DNA of 64,000 bases, from positions 1,152,237 to 1,216,236 of the forward strand of contig OZ244836.1 of NCBI GenBank assembly GCA_965220645.1. The letters run 5' to 3'. Below, one piece after another: positions 5,024-63,881 of the stretch (the stretch's first letter is position 1; every line of letters begins with the position of its first letter). The translations under genes were made by a program, and so were the position numbers. The notes under the pieces were generated by a model. The model searched no databases. It was not told where the DNA came from and worked only from the letters and a program-made list of their open reading frames with translations. This DNA is from Candidatus Aldehydirespirator sp. (GTDB taxonomy: Bacteria > Actinomycetota > Acidimicrobiia > Acidimicrobiales > Aldehydirespiratoraceae).

Positions 5024-6037
5024 TCAGGCGCCGCCCTCGGGAATCGTGACGACGATCTTGCCGATGTGCTCGCCGGCCTGCTGTACCCGTTGTGCCTCGG
5101 CCAGCTCGGTCCAGTCGAGTGTGTGGCTGACATGGGGGCGCAGCCTTGAGTCCATGGCAGCAGCCAGGTCGCGCAGGGCGGCCACGCTGCCCACGGCGAT
5201 GCCTTGAAGCTTGATCTGACGGGTCATCACCGACGTCACCGGGACCTGCGCTGCGCCGAAGCCCGACAGCACCCCGATGACCGCGACGGTGCCGTCGATG
5301 CGGGCTGCCTTGACCGACTGGGCCAGGGTGTGCTCGCCGCCGAGGTCGATCACCAAGTCGGCGCCCCGGCCGCCGGTGATGTCGATGACGGTCTTGTGCC
5401 ACTCCGGGGTCGAGCGGTAGTTGATGAGATGGTCCGCGCCGAGGAAGCGGGCGGTCTCGAGCTTCGCGTCCGACGACGAGGTGATGATCACGGTGGCGCC
5501 GCTGGCTGCAGCCAACTGCACCGCGTAGAGCGACACCCCGCCGGTTCCCTGCGTGACCACCACGTCCCCGGGCTTGACGTCGCCTGCGCGTAGGGCGCTC
5601 CAAGCAGTGACGCCGGCACAAACGAGCGTGGCCGCCTCGCCGTCGCTGAGGTGGGCCGGCGCTGCGACCAGGGCGTTCGCCGGGCACACCATGTGCTGCT
5701 GGAGCCATCCGTCGCCGGTGTCGCCCGGCGTGACTCGCAACTTCTCCCGGGTCAGGGGCCCGTCGAGCCACAACGGATGGAACGCACCCAGCACCCGGTC
5801 GCCTACGGCCACGTCCCGCACATCGGACGCCACCGCCACAACCTCGCCGCAGCCGTCGGTCATGGGCACCCGGGGCCAGGGACCCCGGATCAGTCCCATC
5901 AGGTTGACCAGATCGTGGTAGTTCATGCTTGAGGCCCGCACCGCCACCACGGCTTGGCCGAGCCCGGGCTCGGGCACAGGGCGATTCTCGGGCCGGGGCG
6001 GCTCACCCGGGCCGTCCATCACCATGGCAATGCTCAT
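5024..6037 (-). CDS. NADPH:quinone oxidoreductase / zinc-independent MDR family oxidoreductase
   Basis: Contains VAVRASSMNYHDL, the GTGGVSLYAVQLAAASGA Rossmann motif, and a C-terminal GKIVVTI. The start is chosen at MSIAMVMDG (6037); ATG 6067 is also possible. Confidence 0.8.
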   Translation of the reverse strand: MSIAMVMDGPGEPPRPENRPVPEPGLGQAVVAVRASSMNYHDLVNLMGLIRGPWPRVPMTDGCGEVVAVASDVRDVAVGDRVLGAFHPLWLDGPLTREKLRVTPGDTGDGWLQQHMVCPANALVAAPAHLSDGEAATLVCAGVTAWSALRAGDVKPGDVVVTQGTGGVSLYAVQLAAASGATVIITSSSDAKLETARFLGADHLINYRSTPEWHKTVIDITGGRGADLVIDLGGEHTLAQSVKAARIDGTVAVIGVLSGFGAAQVPVTSVMTRQIKLQGIAVGSVAALRDLAAAMDSRLRPHVSHTLDWTELAEAQRVQQAGEHIGKIVVTIPEGGA

Positions 6038-9904: not shown

Positions 9905-9933
9905 TCGCTGCTATCTCCTGATTCGAACGTCGA

Positions 9934-9970
9934 GCGGTGGGGCCGGGGCGCTGCGCTTCGGCCCCACCGC
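9934..9970 (+). terminator. strong GC hairpin between the SBP and permease genes (attenuator/mRNA-stabiliser type)
   Basis: Perfect 12-bp stem gcggtggggccg / cggccccaccgc with a 13-nt loop, 30 nt after the SBP stop. No U-tract follows. Confidence 0.55.
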
Positions 9971-10004
9971 CGCACCGAGGGCGAGTGAGCGAAGGGTGAG
10001 ATAG

Positions 10005-11039
10005 GTGCCGAGGTACCTGGCAGGTCGCATAGGCCAGTCGCTGGTGCTCGTGTTCGGCGTCATGGTGATCGTCTTCTCGATGCTGCGGGTGTCCGGCGAC
10101 CCGACCAACCTGCTCGTCCCCCGGGAAGCGACCCAGGCCCAGCGAGAAGCGGCGCGCCAGGCGCACGGCCTGGACAGGAGCGTTCCCGAACAGTTCGTCG
10201 ACTTCGTGGGCGACTCGGCTCGCCTCGACTTCGGCAACTCGCTTCGCTACAAGATCCCGGTGCGGGAGGTGATTCTCGACCGTCTGCCCGCCACGATCGA
10301 GCTGGGCGTGGCCGCGATGGCCTTCGCGGTCGCGATCGGAGTGCCGCTGGGAATCCTGGCGGGCGTCAAGGCAGGCCGCCGATGGGACGGCGCGGCGCGC
10401 GGGTTCGCGTTGCTGGGCCAGACGATTCCCAACTTCTGGCTGTCGCTGGTCTTCATCCTCGTGTTCGCGGTACAGCTCAGATGGTTGCCGTCGTTCGGGC
10501 GCAACACCCTGTCACTGTGGTTCGTGACGGTGCCCGACAAGTCCATCATCCTTCCGGCCGTCGCCCTCGGGCTGTTCCCGATGGCTCAGCTGCTGCGCTT
10601 CACCAGGTCGTCGGTGCTGGAGATCGTCAACGAGGAGTACGTGCGCATCGCTCGAAGCAAAGGCCTCAGGACGCCGCTCATCTACAGCCGCTACATCCTG
10701 CGCAACGCGCTCATCCCGCTCATCAGCGTCATGAGCCTGCAGGTCGGCGCTCTGCTGGGCGGCTCGCTGTACATCGAGGCCGTGTTTGCGTGGCCGGGCG
10801 CCGGAGGGCTGCTGGCCGAGGCGGTGACCAACCGCGACTTCCAGCTCGTGCAGGGCATAGCGTTCTTCGGCGCGCTGATCGTGATCCTGTTCTCGCTGCT
10901 CTCCGACGTTCTGTACACCGTCGCCGACCCCCGCATCAGAGTGGGAAGGCTGCGTCCAGCGGTGAGCAGCCCGCGCAGCGCGAGTCGGCACGATACGTCG
11001 GCGACGATCCCGAAGCCCCACGGAGAGGGGATCACATGA
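10005..11039 (+). CDS. ABC transporter permease (DppB/OppB-like)
   Basis: GTG start. Multiple TM segments, with an EAA-like region IARSKGLRTPLIYSRYILRNALIPLI. Confidence 0.85.
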   Translation: MPRYLAGRIGQSLVLVFGVMVIVFSMLRVSGDPTNLLVPREATQAQREAARQAHGLDRSVPEQFVDFVGDSARLDFGNSLRYKIPVREVILDRLPATIELGVAAMAFAVAIGVPLGILAGVKAGRRWDGAARGFALLGQTIPNFWLSLVFILVFAVQLRWLPSFGRNTLSLWFVTVPDKSIILPAVALGLFPMAQLLRFTRSSVLEIVNEEYVRIARSKGLRTPLIYSRYILRNALIPLISVMSLQVGALLGGSLYIEAVFAWPGAGGLLAEAVTNRDFQLVQGIAFFGALIVILFSLLSDVLYTVADPRIRVGRLRPAVSSPRSASRHDTSATIPKPHGEGIT

Positions 11040-58405: not shown

Positions 58406-59086
58406 TCACGACGGGCGTAGCGAAGTCAGGTCGTCACCGGTGTTGTTCACCGTGAGGAGCATCGGACCGGCGGGGTGGTAGGCGATGGCGGTGACCGAGC
58501 ACGGCGAGATCACGATCCGCTGGAACAGGTCTAACGGCGTGCCGGCCGCGGCCGCGGCGACCGCCTTGATCACGTCGGCGTGGGACACGGCCACCACGGT
58601 CTCGCCGGCGTGGCGGGCACAGATGGCGGCCACCGCGTCGAGGGCGCGGGCTTGCATCTCGGCGAACGACTCCCCGCCGGGGAAGCGGAACCCGCTGGGA
58701 TGGCGCTGCACCGTGGTCCACTCCTTGCGCCGGCTCAGGTTCTTGAGCTTGCGCCCCGTCCACCGGCCGAAGTCGCACTCGATGAGCCCCGGGCTCCGTC
58801 GTACCCGCAGCCTGCAGGCCCGGGCGATGGGTGTGGCCGTCTCGACGGTGCGCTCCATCGGCGAGGCATAGACCGCCTTGACCCGGTCGAGCCCGGCCAG
58901 CCGCTCGGCCACCCGGCGAGCCTGTTCGGCACCCTCGGGCGCCAGGTGGAGCCCGGGAGCCCGGCCCGGAAGCACCGATCCCGTGGTCGGCGTCTGCCCG
59001 TGGCGCACGAACAGCACGACGGCGACGGCCTCGGCGCCGTCCTTGGGAGCGGTCTCGGCCGAACTGGGTGCGGAACTGGTGGCCAT
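58406..59086 (-). CDS. histidine phosphatase family protein (MSMEG_4193-type putative phosphomutase)
   Basis: Contains LFVRHGQT (RHG motif) and VAVSHADVI. The start is taken at MATSS (59086); upstream in-frame Met codons would run into the neighbouring cassette leader. Confidence 0.7.
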   Translation of the reverse strand: MATSSAPSSAETAPKDGAEAVAVVLFVRHGQTPTTGSVLPGRAPGLHLAPEGAEQARRVAERLAGLDRVKAVYASPMERTVETATPIARACRLRVRRSPGLIECDFGRWTGRKLKNLSRRKEWTTVQRHPSGFRFPGGESFAEMQARALDAVAAICARHAGETVVAVSHADVIKAVAAAAAGTPLDLFQRIVISPCSVTAIAYHPAGPMLLTVNNTGDDLTSLRPS

Positions 59087-59110
59087 GGTGCTTGTCAACG
59101 TAGCCTGATC

Positions 59111-59123
59111 GTCCGTGGAGTCC
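59111..59123. repeat. 13-bp direct repeat, left copy, bordering the PHP-ATPase cassette
   Basis: gtccgtggagtcc is identical to 63197..63209. Confidence 0.9.
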
Positions 59124-62100
59124 GCCGAGCAGCTCGAAGTCCTGAGGGTGAGACCGGTCATCGTGCCTGCTTCTCGCTCGCCGGCTCCGCACCGAAAGCT
59201 AGGATTCCGCGGGCCACCGACAGCCGAGAAGGGGCCATGAGCGCCGACGACGTCATTGCCGATGCCTTGAACCTCGGATCCGGTGCGCGTTTCATGCGTT
59301 GTGCGCTGCAAGTGAACCCGTCCCACTACCTCGGCACCTTCCAAGGCGACGAACAGGAGGACAGCGCAGCGGAGTACACGCGTGCGGTGGTGGACAAGGC
59401 TCAGGAAGTCGGTGTGTCAGTCCTAGCAATCACTGATCACAACAGCGTGCGTGACGTCTCCCGCTTCAGGACCGCCGCTCAAGGCACCGGCATCACGATC
59501 CTGCCCGGATTTGAGTTGGAGTCAACCGAGGGAATACATGTCCTGTGCGTTTACTCGCCAGACATGGCGGACCAGCAGTTGGAGAGACTTCTTGGCGAGT
59601 TCGGAGTACGAGATACTCAACCTTCGTCTACTCAATGCGCTCATGACTTCGTGACGGTCCTAGGCATGGTCCGAGAGCAGGGTGGCATCGCCGTAGCTGC
59701 TCATTCGACTGGCAAGAAGGGCCTGTTCAAGGTGCTGAGTGGTCAGGCCCGCATAAGGGCGTGGCAGTGCCCGGACCTGCTTGCTGTACAGATCCCTGGC
59801 TCGATCTCACAACTGCCTGAGGACAGTCGCCAGATTCTTGAGGATCGAAACCCCGACTACAGGCGCAGCTTCGCCGCAAGCGACAGGCAGGCAGTGGCAG
59901 CACTCAACGCCAAGGATGTGACCAAGCCCGAGGATCTAGACCACGCTTCAGCCACCTGCTGGATCAAGATGTCGGGAGATGTCACTGTCGAAGGCCTCCG
60001 ACAGGCGTTCCTTGACCCGGACTCGAGGATTCGCCTCAACAGTGATCCCGATCCCGAGGAACACTCGGAATTGGTGGCACTCGCGTGGGAGGGCGGAGGC
60101 TTCCTGGACGGCGCTGCAATACACCTCAATCAGAACTTGAATGTCATGATTGGGGGCCGCGGCACCGGGAAATCCACCGTAGTGGAGAGCCTCAGGTATG
60201 TGCTGGGACTGGAGCCGAAGGGCGCTGAAGCACTCAAGACCCACCAAGAAATCGTACGGCAGGTGATTCGGCCGGGAACGAAGTTGTCGCTACTTGTGCG
60301 CTGCTGTCGGCCGGCCGAGTTGGAATACAGGATTGAGCGCACGGTTCCCAACCCGCCGGTCGTCCGAGACCAGGACGGAAGGGTGCTTGAGCTTCTGCCA
60401 GCCGACATCCTGCCGAGGATCGAGGTCTATGGCCAGCATGAGATATCAGAGTTGACGAATAGGGAGGACCAGCTCACGTCTCTGCTGCATCGCTTCATAA
60501 GGCCGGATGAGTCGCTGAACCAACGGAAAGCGGAGGTCCGCCGCGAACTCAAGAAGACTCGGCTGGCCATCCTGCAAGCTAGCTCCGAACTTGACGACAT
60601 CGATGAGCGGCTGGCGGATCTGCCCAGACTTGAGCAGACCCTCGAACGCTTCCAGGAGGCCGGCCTTGAGGACCGTCTGCGTGATCAGAGCCTGCTCGTG
60701 CGCGAAGAGCGCATTCTGGCCGCTGTTCCCGAACGCGTGCAGGTGTTCCGCGAGGCATTGGAGACGCTCCGCCGAGAGTTGCCGGTCGACGCGACGTTCG
60801 TATCCGAGGAGGCCCTCGAGGACCTGCCGGGCGCCAGCATCCTCAGCCGTGCCAGCGAGGTGCTGGAGCAACTGAGTCGCGATCTGGAGGAGGTGGCACG
60901 ACGGCTTGGGGCAGCCCTAGAGCAAGCGGACGAGGGAATCGAGGACGTTCGCGCCCGCTGGTTGGAGCGCAAGCGCCAAGTCGACGCCGAGTACGAATCG
61001 ATCCTGCGCCAATTGCAAAAGTCCGCTGTTGATGGAGAGGAGTTCATCCGACTGCGGCGTGACATCGAGAACTTGCAGCCTCTTTCTAAGCGGCGGGCCT
61101 TGCTGGAGCGTCTCGTCGAGGAGCACATGAATCGCCGGCGTCAACTCCTGGTCGAATGGGAAGATGTCAAGGCCGAAGAGTTCCGGGGCCTCAGTCGGGC
61201 TGCAGACAGGGTCAGCACGGCGTTGAAGGATCGAGTACACGTCGACGTCTACAGCGCTGGTGATCGCAAGCCGCTCTTCGATCTCTTCACCAAAGAGATC
61301 GGAGGCCGCCTCTCAGAGACCGTCGCGATACTGGAGCGAGTCGAGGACATGTCACTACCGGAGTTAGTTGACGCGTGCCGGAAGGACACCGACAGCGTCA
61401 AGAAGAAGTATGGCCTGCCGTCCAAGCAGGCGGAGCGTTTGGCAGGGGCCTCTGCGAGCACCCTGATGCAGATCGAGGAGCTTGAGTTGTCTTCGACGAC
61501 GGATCTCAAGCTAAACACGGCCGCAGCAGGCGAGCGGCCGGATTGGAACGCGCTCAAACAGCTGTCCAAGGGACAGAAGGCGACTGCTGTGCTCCTCCTG
61601 CTGCTGCTGGAGTCTGACGCCCCCCTAGTGATCGACCAGCCGGAGGATGACCTTGACAACCGTTTCATTACCGAGGGAGTTGTGCCTCGGATCCGCGAGG
61701 AGAAGCGTCGTCGGCAGTTCGTATTCTCGACCCACAACGCCAATATTCCGGTCTTGGGTGATGCTGAGTTGATACTGGGACTACACGCCTCAGGCGAAGC
61801 CTTCGGTGGAAGGGCATTCATCTCGTCCGAGCACATGGGCTCGATCGACTCACCGTCTGTGAGGGCACTGGTAGAGGAGGTCTTGGAGGGCGGCAAGACT
61901 GCCTTCGAGACTCGACGCCGCAAATACGGATTCTGAGGCTGCTCGTGATCCGACCGCCCCAGCCCGTCGCCTGTCAATGAACCGCACCGATCTGGTCGCG
62001 GCAATAGCCGGAGGCGAGAACTCGCGAGTTGAGTTCAAACGTGACGACATCAAACCCGTAGAGCTCGCCGAGCGCATGGCAGGATTGCTGAATCTTGAGG

Positions 62101-63196
62101 GTGGCCACCTACTGCTAGGCGTCGAGGACGATGGCACGGTGTCGGGTCTCGCTCGCAGTCCCGGCAAGGCCGAAGAGTGGGTGATGCAGGCTGCCAGGGA
62201 CAACCTGCAGCCAGCTGCGATACCCGTCTGGCAGGAGCTGGAGTGGGCGCCGGGGAGGCGGGTGGGAGTGGTGACCCTTCCGCCGAACGCCCCCGACAAG
62301 CCTTACAAGGCCAGGAGGGGGAACCACTGGGTAACAAAGGTGCGGGTCGGCACCATCACGCGGGACGCGACCCGAGAGGAGGAGCAGCGGCTCTATCAGC
62401 AGTCCGGGGGCCTCCGCTACGGCCTCAAACCGGTCACCGGATCTGGGCTCCACGACCTGGACCATCGTCGCCTGCGGGACTATTTTGCCCGCATTCGAGG
62501 GGACACCAGCGTGCCGACGCCGGGTTCGGACGAGTGGGGGCGACTGCTCTGCAACCTGGAGCTTGCTATCGAGGCGGCCGGGCATACTTCCGCCACGATT
62601 GACGGAATGCTGCTGTTTGGTTCCAACTCCGGGAAGTTCGTGCCGCAGTCGGGTATCCGGGCTATCTGCTACCAAGGGCTGGAGCCAGACTACGGGGCAC
62701 GCTCCGACGAGGATCTCAAGGGGCCGTTGGTTCCGCTCGGCACATCGGACGGCTCGATCGCCGAGACCGGGGTTGTGGACAGGGCAGTGGACTTTGTGCG
62801 CCGCAACTCCGGCGTCTCGTCCCGATTGGAGGGCGCCCGGAGGATTGACCGTCCCGACTACCCTGAGGACGCCATTCGTGAAGTAGTTGTGAACGCGCTT
62901 GCGCATCGCGATTACAGCATTGAAGGTACCGACGCGATGCTGTCCATCTTTTCGGACCGTCTTGAGATCCAGAGCCCGGGCAGGCTGCCCAACACGATCA
63001 CGGTGGAGGGGATGCGGTCGGGCGCTCGCTACGCCAGGAACCAGACTCTGGTGAACATCATGCGCGACTATGGCTACGTCGACGCCCGCGGCATGGGAAT
63101 CCGTAACAAGGTCATACCGAGCATGGCGGCACACAACGGCACCGAGCCTGAGTTCGTTGAGGACGACTATCGCTTTCTTGTCCGACTTTGGAAGTA
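59124..63196. mobile_element. putative horizontally acquired two-gene islet (candidate defence cassette) between 13-bp direct repeats
   Basis: G+C is visibly lower than in the flanks. The islet interrupts core genes and is flanked by a perfect 13-mer. No recombinase gene is present. Confidence 0.4.
59237..61936 (+). CDS. PHP-domain phosphoesterase fused to an SMC/RecN/SbcC-like coiled-coil ABC-type ATPase (PplA-like)
   Basis: PHP motifs are AITDHNS, GFELES, GIHVLCVY and AVAAHSTG. ATPase motifs are Walker A GGRGTGKST (60152..60178), Q-loop VYGQHE, signature-like LSKGQKATAV, Walker B LVIDQPEDDLD (61622..61657) and H-loop FSTHNANI. About 270 aa of heptad-rich insert separates the ATPase halves. 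Confidence 0.8.
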   Translation: MSADDVIADALNLGSGARFMRCALQVNPSHYLGTFQGDEQEDSAAEYTRAVVDKAQEVGVSVLAITDHNSVRDVSRFRTAAQGTGITILPGFELESTEGIHVLCVYSPDMADQQLERLLGEFGVRDTQPSSTQCAHDFVTVLGMVREQGGIAVAAHSTGKKGLFKVLSGQARIRAWQCPDLLAVQIPGSISQLPEDSRQILEDRNPDYRRSFAASDRQAVAALNAKDVTKPEDLDHASATCWIKMSGDVTVEGLRQAFLDPDSRIRLNSDPDPEEHSELVALAWEGGGFLDGAAIHLNQNLNVMIGGRGTGKSTVVESLRYVLGLEPKGAEALKTHQEIVRQVIRPGTKLSLLVRCCRPAELEYRIERTVPNPPVVRDQDGRVLELLPADILPRIEVYGQHEISELTNREDQLTSLLHRFIRPDESLNQRKAEVRRELKKTRLAILQASSELDDIDERLADLPRLEQTLERFQEAGLEDRLRDQSLLVREERILAAVPERVQVFREALETLRRELPVDATFVSEEALEDLPGASILSRASEVLEQLSRDLEEVARRLGAALEQADEGIEDVRARWLERKRQVDAEYESILRQLQKSAVDGEEFIRLRRDIENLQPLSKRRALLERLVEEHMNRRRQLLVEWEDVKAEEFRGLSRAADRVSTALKDRVHVDVYSAGDRKPLFDLFTKEIGGRLSETVAILERVEDMSLPELVDACRKDTDSVKKKYGLPSKQAERLAGASASTLMQIEELELSSTTDLKLNTAAAGERPDWNALKQLSKGQKATAVLLLLLLESDAPLVIDQPEDDLDNRFITEGVVPRIREEKRRRQFVFSTHNANIPVLGDAELILGLHASGEAFGGRAFISSEHMGSIDSPSVRALVEEVLEGGKTAFETRRRKYGF

Positions 63197-63197
63197 G
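61977..63197 (+). CDS. AlbA_2 (Schlafen-like divergent AAA) + HATPase_c_4 domain protein (COG2865 architecture)
   Basis: N-terminal ENSRVEFKRDD...LLNLEGGHLLLGVEDDGTVSGL. C-terminal EDAIREVVVNALAHRDYS...LEIQSPGRLPNTIT...RYARNQTLVNIM. Confidence 0.8.
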   Translation: MNRTDLVAAIAGGENSRVEFKRDDIKPVELAERMAGLLNLEGGHLLLGVEDDGTVSGLARSPGKAEEWVMQAARDNLQPAAIPVWQELEWAPGRRVGVVTLPPNAPDKPYKARRGNHWVTKVRVGTITRDATREEEQRLYQQSGGLRYGLKPVTGSGLHDLDHRRLRDYFARIRGDTSVPTPGSDEWGRLLCNLELAIEAAGHTSATIDGMLLFGSNSGKFVPQSGIRAICYQGLEPDYGARSDEDLKGPLVPLGTSDGSIAETGVVDRAVDFVRRNSGVSSRLEGARRIDRPDYPEDAIREVVVNALAHRDYSIEGTDAMLSIFSDRLEIQSPGRLPNTITVEGMRSGARYARNQTLVNIMRDYGYVDARGMGIRNKVIPSMAAHNGTEPEFVEDDYRFLVRLWK

Positions 63198-63209
63198 TCC
63201 GTGGAGTCC
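63197..63209. repeat. 13-bp direct repeat, right copy; contains the udgB GTG start
   Basis: gtccgtggagtcc is identical to 59111..59123. Its first base is the last base of the upstream stop codon. Confidence 0.9.
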
Positions 63210-63881
63210 CCCGGCTCGCGCCGCATCCTTGCCGAGATTGCCTCGGAGGTGACCGCGTGCCGGGCCTGCCCCCGGTTGGTGGATTGGCGCGAGCAGGTCG
63301 GGCGCACCAAGCGGGCCGCCTACCGTGACGAGGAGTATTGGGCCCGCGGCGTCCCCGGCTTCGGCGATCCCGACGCCCACCTGGTGGTGGTGGGGCTGGC
63401 GCCCGCGGCCCACGGGGCCAACCGCACCGGCCGGATGTTCACCGGCGACCGCTCGGGGGACTGGCTGTACCGGGCCTTGCACCGCGCCGGCTACGCCAAC
63501 CAGGCTCGCTCCGCCCACCGAGGCGACGGGCTGACCCTGGCCGGCGCGTGGATTACCGCGCCAGTGAAGTGCGCTCCTCCGGACAACAAGCCGTCGCCGG
63601 CCGAGCGTGATCGCTGCATGCCGTTCATGCGGCGCGAGCTGGAGGCGCTCAAGGCGCTCCGGGTGGTGGTCGTGCTCGGCGGCTTCGCCCACCAGGTGGT
63701 GTGGCGCGAGCTGGGCTCGGGGTCTCGCCCCCGCTTCGCTCACGGTGCCGAGGCCCCCCTGCCCGGCGACCGGACGCTGCTGTGCAGCTACCACCCCAGC
63801 CAGCAGAACACCTTCACCGGCCGCCTCACCGAGCCCATGCTCGACGCCGTGTTCGCCCGGGCCAGAGAACTGGGCGGCTAA
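63201..63881 (+). CDS. udgB: uracil-DNA glycosylase, family 5 (UdgB-like), Fe-S type
   Basis: Contains CRACPRL (Fe-S Cys), motif [23 protein letters not shown] (GLAPA rather than the family-4 GEAPG), and motif B SYHPSQQN. Confidence 0.8.

Follow-up and report, generated by a model that had tools for sequence, protein, structure and literature searches.

The window analysed here, a stretch of 64,000 nucleotides from a genome of Candidatus Aldehydirespirator sp., carries a two-gene cassette, trlF-trlG, which is located between a phosphomutase gene and the divergently oriented gene udgB and is bracketed by two copies of a 13-nt direct repeat. We consider it probable that these repeats are a target duplication which arose from a recombinase-independent insertion of the trlFG module, and that the insertion was followed by exchange between species, decay and loss. 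A previous reading based on the sequence only had proposed either a target-site duplication or an att pair; the target duplication is supported by our analysis, and the att pair has become less likely because members of the cassette family elsewhere carry duplications of unrelated sequence and of very different length. The two repeat copies are located as follows:

59111–59123, + strand: left copy of GTCCGTGGAGTCC, in which the udgB start region (GTG GAG TCC) recurs as an orphan
63197–63209, + strand: right copy of GTCCGTGGAGTCC, with the GTG at 63201 being the start of udgB

Using an exact count over the entire genome of 3,586,714 bp we found GTCCGTGGAGTCC twice, once at each junction, with about 0.29 copies being expected from the base composition; the probability for any exact 13-mer to be common to two 200-nt windows is about 0.003. 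If one mismatch is allowed the repeat extends to 16 identical positions out of 17 (59111–59127 compared to 63197–63213). On the left side 24 nt separate the repeat from the start codon of the phosphomutase gene (CAT on the + strand, 59084–59086). On the right side the last base of the trlG stop codon TAG (63195–63197) is at the same time the first base of the repeat, and the GTG of udgB (63201–63203) lies within it. The two copies are spaced by 4,086 bp, and the 4,073 bp between them (59124–63196) are made up of a 113-nt leader, ORF1 (trlF, 59237–61936), a 40-nt spacer and ORF2 (trlG, 61977–63197), with only 153 nt of the insert being non-coding. No integrase or transposase gene is present in the insert, which is filled by its two genes and leaves no room for a recombinase, and none was found beside it, where the flanks are formed by the phosphomutase gene, a DUF3090 gene and udgB. 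Terminal inverted repeats were sought at the cassette ends and none were found, and the cassette is present as a single copy in this genome.

The boundaries are also visible in the base composition. The insert has a G+C content of 61.55%, compared to 69.4% in the 4 kb on its left, 72.7% in the right flank and 68.0% in the whole genome, and belongs to the lowest 1.5% of all 4-kb windows of the genome (standard deviation 2.26%), with the fall and the rise of G+C located exactly at the repeat positions. The G+C content at third codon positions (GC3) is 0.71 for trlF and 0.77 for trlG versus 0.90 for the phosphomutase gene, 0.91 for udgB and 0.93 for rpoB. Thus, the features on which the sequence-only reading was built could be reproduced: the position of both repeat copies, the distance of 24 nt to the phosphomutase gene, the stop codon of ORF2 and the GTG of udgB inside the right copy, the 4,073 bp with exactly two genes, the lack of an integrase or transposase gene and all four hand counts of G+C (31/60, 38/60, 40/60 and 45/60), which are exact. 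The restriction of the 13-mer to the two junctions in the genome and an insert sharply unlike its flanks in G+C and GC3 are also in agreement with it. Outside the window the genome contains 31 regions with a 4-kb G+C content of 63% or less (minimum 52.7%), examples from C1 being 1840001–1851074, 3233501–3242074 and 1676001–1684074, and these are likely to be further horizontally acquired islands.

To follow the site through the genus we compared 39 species genomes of Candidatus Aldehydirespirator, all of them metagenome-assembled genomes (MAGs) and many of the close relatives originating from sponge metagenomes. One genome (G001) has no udgB match, and occupancy was counted over the other 38 species. 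A clean empty site is found in 24 of them (G002, G004–G012, G014, G016–G019, G022, G023, G041–G043 and G048–G051). Here the phosphomutase CAT is followed by about 24 nt (caacgtagcctgatc...), a single copy of nnnnGTGGAGTCC and udgB without any scar, the junction reading ...CAT-24 nt-(g/a)nnnGTGGAGTCC..udgB, which is the very structure that had been predicted for relatives without the cassette. The full cassette is present at the site in nine species (G000, G021, G046, G020, G047, G053, G003, G044 and G013) and a decayed one in five, adding up to 14 of the 38 species with the cassette or its wreck. The decayed forms differ from each other: trlF codons 1–241 are fused to trlG codons 17–406 in G015, a few N-terminal trlF codons remain together with trlF 815–852 and trlG 325–406 in G024, trlF 1–331 and the trlG tail in G045, trlG alone in G052, and a 54-codon trlF relic with trlG in G054. 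From G048 two different empty-site alleles of phosphomutase-udgB were recovered on two contigs (L109 and L108); its contamination is estimated at 7%, and it probably represents two strains binned together.

The occupied relatives also give information about the original length of the duplication. An exact repeat of 13 nt is found in the window and in G021, 13–14 nt in G020 and G046, 16 nt in G003 and 18 nt in G044, and the junction repeats of G054 and G015 show 22 of 23 and 23 of 23 identical positions, respectively, the latter being GTGGAGTCCCCCGGCCAGCGCCT. In G047 and G053 the left copy is degenerate. These repeats point to an original duplication of at least 23 bp (GTGGAGTCCCCCGGCCAGCGCCT), equivalent to the first eight or so codons of udgB and perhaps a few bases upstream, and the 13-mer would be the part of it that is still identical in this genome. 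The distance between the left-copy GTG and the leader motif GACCGG...CGTCGTGCC is 37 nt in both the window and G054, and therefore the junctions appear to be homologous and derived from one event, with the left copy having drifted. Its first 13 nt were probably retained because they are part of the shared promoter and start region while its remainder drifted, and the right copy would have been held constant as the start and coding sequence of udgB.

The same signature is present at other trlFG loci. We compared the 800 nt upstream with the 800 nt downstream of the gene pair for 58 loci and used 174 mismatched flank pairs as controls, which gave a maximum of 46.8 bits and a 95th percentile of 25.7. 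The following duplications were accepted:

L080, Latescibacterota: 75 nt, 100% identity, 144 bits; last 70 nt and stop codon of glgC, with the cassette between stop and terminator
L097, a related species with the same glgC site as L080: 81–90 nt, 88–90% identity, 110 bits; end of glgC
L088, Latescibacterota: 256 nt, 80% identity, 194 bits; 3' end of a PD40-repeat gene
L086, Gemmatimonas: 57 nt, 77% identity, 35 bits; 3' end of an MR_MLE gene

With 35 bits L086 stays below the control maximum and is the weakest case. For the glgC site three relatives align contiguously over the joined flanks, showing one copy of the 75 nt and neither trlF nor trlG, and other relatives are occupied. The repeat copies are spaced by 4.08–4.6 kb in all accepted cases, and a comparison of the independent cassette insertions found no conserved end sequences. 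Four additional loci were not counted as target duplications: L041 shows a tandem REP-like unit, the repeats of L050 and L082 are located 370–650 nt away from the genes, and the repeat of L055 lies inside an HTH_37 gene, maybe a trlR-like regulator in a stacked cassette. In this last locus (Ca. Multivorans; 5411–5962 and 9932–10361) the HTH_37 gene is found 5' of trlF and a 77-nt piece of it recurs with 92% identity just after trlG; the gene may encode a TrlR-like regulator and its repeat may be the relic of a stacked cassette.

Phylogenetic analysis was used to reconstruct the history of the cassette within the genus. With respect to outgroups from other phyla, trlF and trlG of the genus each form one clade (100/100 support), and this monophyly indicates a single entry. 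The occupied genomes are scattered across every major clade of the rpoB tree. Some groupings in the cassette trees agree with rpoB (G013 with G052; G003 with G015 and G054) and others are in conflict with it (G046 with G047; G044 with G020 for trlG). When the trlF and trlG trees were constrained to contain the rpoB clades, the constraint was rejected with AU p values of 1e-5 to 1e-79, whereas the trees of the phosphomutase gene and of udgB agree with rpoB. In G047 the bases diagnostic of the G046 clade are found in the first 50–100 nt of udgB, and the remainder of the gene as well as the entire left flank is of the type of its own clade; this mosaic is what homologous recombination with a crossover just inside udgB leaves behind. 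Altogether the trees and the mosaic indicate that species have exchanged the cassette through homologous recombination, the crossovers lying within the flanks or close to them, and that it was lost many times. Parsimony on the rpoB tree gives at least 11 state changes, and a history with a single gain needs about 16 scar-free losses. A clean loss may go back either to a deletion between the two repeat copies or to an incoming empty allele that replaced the occupied one. The GC3 deficit is seen in all occupied species and the composition therefore marks a foreign origin and not recency. Accordingly, the horizontal acquisition proposed from the sequence only holds with regard to foreign origin, for which G+C and GC3 speak, and does not imply a recent event, the insert or its wreck being shared by 14 of 38 species.

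The cassette of G044 (L106, reverse strand) has a history of its own. Its trlF is only 71% identical to that of the window, sits on a long branch and has a GC3 of 0.56; its trlG is 90% identical to the window trlG, and its left repeat copy of 18 nt looks fresh. It thus appears to be a chimeric cassette whose trlF and leader were replaced from a more distant source. Outside the genus, trlF relatives with 55–67% identity (loci L034–L101) concentrate in MAGs of sponge-associated lineages, namely Poribacteria, Entotheonella, Latescibacterota, Poriferihabitaceae and Palauibacter irciniicola, suggesting that the trlFG module circulates within the sponge-associated community.

Our model for the formation of the locus is as follows. 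A trlF-trlG module of about 4.06 kb with its own promoter would have entered between the divergent promoter of the phosphomutase gene and udgB and the start codon of udgB, without an integrase or transposase of its own, and udgB would have stayed intact because its start was duplicated. We infer that a linear or circular trlFG fragment was joined at a broken target independently of a recombinase. The duplication could have been made when a staggered break was filled in. Another possibility is homology-facilitated illegitimate recombination, in which the gene next to the target would anchor one end of the fragment while the opposite end joined the recipient's version of that gene a few codons in from its start; a gene end would then be duplicated automatically and by a variable length. 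The single entry into the genus was followed by partial vertical descent, homologous exchange, repeated decay through internal deletions and repeated clean loss.

Insertions that come with a long duplication of the target have been described for restriction-modification systems (2000, Gene 259:99; Furuta, Abe & Kobayashi 2010, NAR 38:2428, PMC2853133). In these cases the repeats frequently cover a site where translation starts or stops, so that the target gene remains intact, double-strand breakage is suspected to be involved, and a duplication of >30 bp, as a cut-off against att sites, and an insert of <20 kb holding a complete system were used as criteria (PMC2853133). The trlFG insert resembles this Furuta/Nobusato/Kobayashi class as a small defence-type unit without integrase or transposase, both of its genes being held by the 4,073-bp insert. 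Its flanking repeats correspond to one copy in relatives with an empty site (24 congeners here and the glgC site in Latescibacterota), they are not dispersed (2 copies in 3.59 Mb), they span a translation start in the window and a stop in glgC of L080, and their length varies by site. It differs from the class in its cargo, which is TrlF-TrlG and not a restriction-modification system, and in being an ancient event shared by many species and not a strain polymorphism.

Several observations weigh against this reading. The duplication demonstrable at the udgB site amounts to only 13–23 bp (perhaps about 29), which is within the range of att cores, and the 13 bp of the window (16/17 with one mismatch) as well as the 23/23 of the best relative are below the >30 bp threshold of the Furuta class, a threshold which the trlFG cassette exceeds elsewhere with 75, 81–90 and 256 bp. 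The most divergent occupied species, G013, shows no repeat and has 250 nt between trlG and udgB, and for this reason it might represent a second, independent insertion at the same site. Furthermore, the four nucleotides before the GTG match within a genome and vary between genomes, with GTCC in the window (59107–59114 and 63193–63200) and G021 and GCCT in G024 (junctions in L027); this covariation, which would not be expected from the simple decay of one ancient duplication, hints at gene conversion or re-insertion. The repeats at L041, L050, L082 and L055 may be of the dispersed kind or stem from regulator genes that were duplicated. Finally, the biochemical step behind the duplication is not readable from the sequence and is inferred.

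Among the other explanations, the repeats could be the attL and attR sites of a cis-mobilisable cassette similar to a cis-mobilisable element (CIME), with the core GTGGAGTCC(CCCGG) and a site-specific recombinase whose gene would lie at another place in the genome or on a helper element. Such a cassette would account for the use of one site by all 14 occupied species, for a core of 13–23 bp as is typical of att sites, for clean single-copy empty sites in 24 species with at least 11 gains or losses on the species tree, and for a disagreement with the species tree that is seen in the phylogeny of the cassette but not in that of the flanks. As in att-integrating elements, which use tyrosine integrases at tRNA genes and at 3' or 5' gene ends and include the CIMEs, a short core is common to the two junctions and is present once where the site is empty, and the duplicated segment restores the target gene. 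However, neither the insert nor its immediate neighbourhood encodes a recombinase, and at the other sites unrelated sequences of 57–256 bp are duplicated without a shared core or conserved cassette ends. Over all sites the duplication length varies 20-fold. The left copies also decay freely in G047, G053 and G013, and the donor-type sequence of G047 extends 50–100 nt into udgB, past any core, as homologous recombination would predict. We therefore regard an att pair as quite unlikely. We would call it unlikely as well that a circular trlFG molecule with a short udgB 5' end was integrated in a Campbell-type manner by the homologous recombination of the host, excision being the reverse reaction. 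Repeats with a length that varies from 13 to 256 bp by site and that are always located at gene ends beside the cassette, identical 75-bp copies in L080 and frequent clean losses would all be in line with this route. On the other hand, 13–23 bp are at or below the minimum homology that RecA-dependent recombination usually requires, the origin of the target sequence on the first circle is left unexplained, and the breakpoint in G047 fits better to a double-crossover replacement by a linear fragment.

Classical transposition, with the 13-mer being the duplication made by the transposase of a non-autonomous transposon, would explain direct repeats located exactly at the boundaries of the insert and a single copy at the empty site, but it is very improbable. 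In contrast to a DNA transposon the cassette shows neither terminal inverted repeats nor a fixed short duplication length, no transposase is present, the cassette is single-copy in the genome, and the duplications range from 13–23 to 256 bp between sites, far beyond the fixed 2–14 bp of transposases (Furuta 2010). A coincidental 13-mer, or one that merely reflects start-codon context, next to an insert that arrived by plain homologous replacement has next to no probability left. It is true that GTGGAGTCC alone is present 66 times in the genome, but the full 13-mer is unique to the junctions (p about 0.003), and chance is refuted by the junction repeats of relatives with up to 23 of 23 identical positions and by empty sites with exactly one copy.

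The reading that we prefer thus remains a target duplication from a recombinase-independent insertion. A far-reaching extension of it, which we regard as rather improbable, is that TrlF-TrlG is a self-propagating 'selfish' cassette in the sense that Kobayashi used for restriction-modification systems, and that its own PHP nuclease and SMC-like ATPase make or process the break. This would be compatible with duplications of variable length and with the invasion of gene ends in distant phyla without an integrase, and the captured leaderless udgB GTG and its promoter might then drive the cassette via a translationally coupled upstream ORF, which is described below.

The genes of the cassette and its two neighbours are the following:

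59237–61936, + strand: trlF (ORF1), 899 aa, N-terminal PHP phosphoesterase and SMC/Rad50-like ABC ATPase with a split head
61977–63197, + strand: trlG-type partner (ORF2), 406 aa, Schlafen AlbA_2 domain (PF04326) and HATPase_c_4 domain (PF13749)
63201–63881, + strand: udgB, UDG superfamily (Pfam UDG, 1e-27) with a GLAPAAHG motif, the intact target gene
58406–59086, − strand: phosphomutase of the MSMEG_4193 family (TIGR03848, 220.8 bits, cut-off 203.85), the divergent left flank

ORF1 matches the TrlF family of NCBIfam (NF045780) with 523.5 bits at a cut-off of 350 and over residues 16–898 of 899, and it shows Pfam matches to PHP, SMC_N, AAA_23 and AAA_21. Its top match in PADLOC is Ppl (1.7e-40); an identity with Ppl was ruled out, with the Ppl profile NF042955 giving 188 bits against an equivalog cut-off of 1000. 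AlbA_2/HATPase_c_4 proteins such as ORF2 are commonly misnamed RecG-like helicase or labelled 'RNA-binding domain-containing protein'. Of 75 loci, which come from many phyla, about 60 have a homologue of ORF2 immediately 3' of trlF, and on plasmids too (33 of 53 conjugative) ORF2 homologues adjoin annotated TrlF genes. From the domains, the gene order and the published description we name ORF2 TrlG and assign the insert as a predicted TrlF-TrlG two-gene module. By homology to Ppl the pair may be an anti-phage-type module. A sequence search in the PDB gave no informative relative for either protein, the matches being only ABC-F ATPases for TrlF and the uncharacterised protein 3lmm alone for TrlG. 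With regard to the neighbours, udgB has the GLAPAAHG motif and encodes what we take to be a family 5/UdgB uracil-DNA glycosylase, and the phosphomutase gene adjoins udgB in every empty-site relative.

The name of the module comes from the operon trlR-trlF-trlG of Photorhabdus laumondii, the temperature restriction locus (TRL; Hapeshi et al. 2020, PMC7554251), in which TrlG is the protein with the misnomer 'RecG-like' and TrlF the 'histidinol phosphatase' (PMC7554251). The only TRL phenotype assayed was growth restriction at 36 °C (PMC7554251), and this paper was also the only one found in a literature search for 'TrlF'. The cassette resembles TRL in that ORF1 scores above the TrlF cut-off, ORF2 shows the TrlG architecture directly 3' of trlF, and the distribution within the genus is patchy, as it is in Photorhabdus. 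It differs from TRL in that no trlR-like small regulator gene is present upstream and in that the host is an uncultured actinobacterial MAG. Ppl, in turn, is said to have been reported by Gao et al. in 2020 as a single-gene anti-phage protein with PHP and ATPase parts ('Gao_Ppl' in DefenseFinder). ORF1 shares with it the architecture of PHP and a split ABC/SMC-like ATPase, but TrlF has a conserved partner gene and Ppl has none; a literature search on Ppl and PHP revealed nothing mechanistic.

Three further features concern the expression of the cassette and of udgB:

59087–59110, no strand assigned: spacer caacgtagcctgatc, the 24 nt between the phosphomutase start and the repeat
59124–59236, + strand: cassette leader with a −10-like TAGGAT (59200–59205) and a GAAGGGG ribosome-binding site 5' of the trlF ATG
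59115–59240, + strand: upstream ORF of 41 codons, which begins at the GTG of the left copy and closes in an ATGA that overlaps the start codon of trlF

The 24-nt spacer is nearly invariant across the genus (38 genomes compared) and contains overlapping −10-like hexamers, TAGCCT on the + strand (59101–59106, 8 nt 5' of the GTG) and TACGTT on the − strand, from which it is likely to be a divergent promoter of compact build, serving genes that are leaderless or have a short leader. The TAGGAT of the leader reads TACAAT in the lineages of G003, G047 and G053, and this box may be the cassette's own promoter. A scan for E. coli-type promoters gave no match, with its consensus being ill-suited to Acidimicrobiia, and for this reason our promoter statements are based on conserved TANNNT hexamers only. 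As no terminator-like site was found on the + strand between trlF and udgB in a scan and as the trlG stop lies 3 nt before the GTG, udgB of occupied genomes has probably lost its own promoter and is co-transcribed by read-through from the cassette.

The stop codon of the upstream ORF overlaps with the trlF start (ATGA, GTGA or TGATG) in six of eight lineages (window, G021, G003, G015, G024 and G046), and this overlap is kept across four leader lengths of 40, 41, 46 and 87 codons, with counterparts of the ORF being present in the loci L033, L031, L079, L027 and L026. In G020 and G044 the ORF is interrupted and without overlap. With a rough post-hoc p of about 0.02 the overlap is no more than suggestive of the cassette being translationally coupled to the leaderless udgB start that it captured. 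The upstream ORF as the main route of trlF expression was dropped, given the −10-like box of the leader and the interrupted ORF in G020 and G044. Two leader and junction variants were observed in addition. G021 (L033, about 5770–5900) has an extra G+C-rich leader insertion of about 130 nt, which is missing from the window and in which the upstream ORF stays open. In G020 (L028, 8741–10639) the trlG stop codon TAG is changed to TCG, bringing trlG in frame with udgB over 634–639 codons (...RLWKSVVESPGRR...), possibly as a TrlG-UdgB fusion or simply as tolerated read-through.

In summary the cargo pair had already been named, and what is new is a module other than a restriction-modification system that shows this mode of insertion recurrently. 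For annotation it is of importance that udgB of the occupied genomes probably depends on transcription from the cassette, and that a GC3 anomaly has outlasted the genus radiation, so that low G+C is no sign of a recent arrival here. The genus with its 39 species offers an unusually legible record of what happens after an insertion, including descent, replacement with a mapped breakpoint, five decay intermediates and scar-free losses. Little is understood about the movement of small defence modules between genomes in the absence of recombinases. In Actinomycetota, Latescibacterota and Gemmatimonadota the TrlFG signature is found at the ends of at least four unrelated genes, for two of which empty sites were confirmed in relatives, and this suggests a general route of defence-gene mobility which is possibly linked to DNA breakage.

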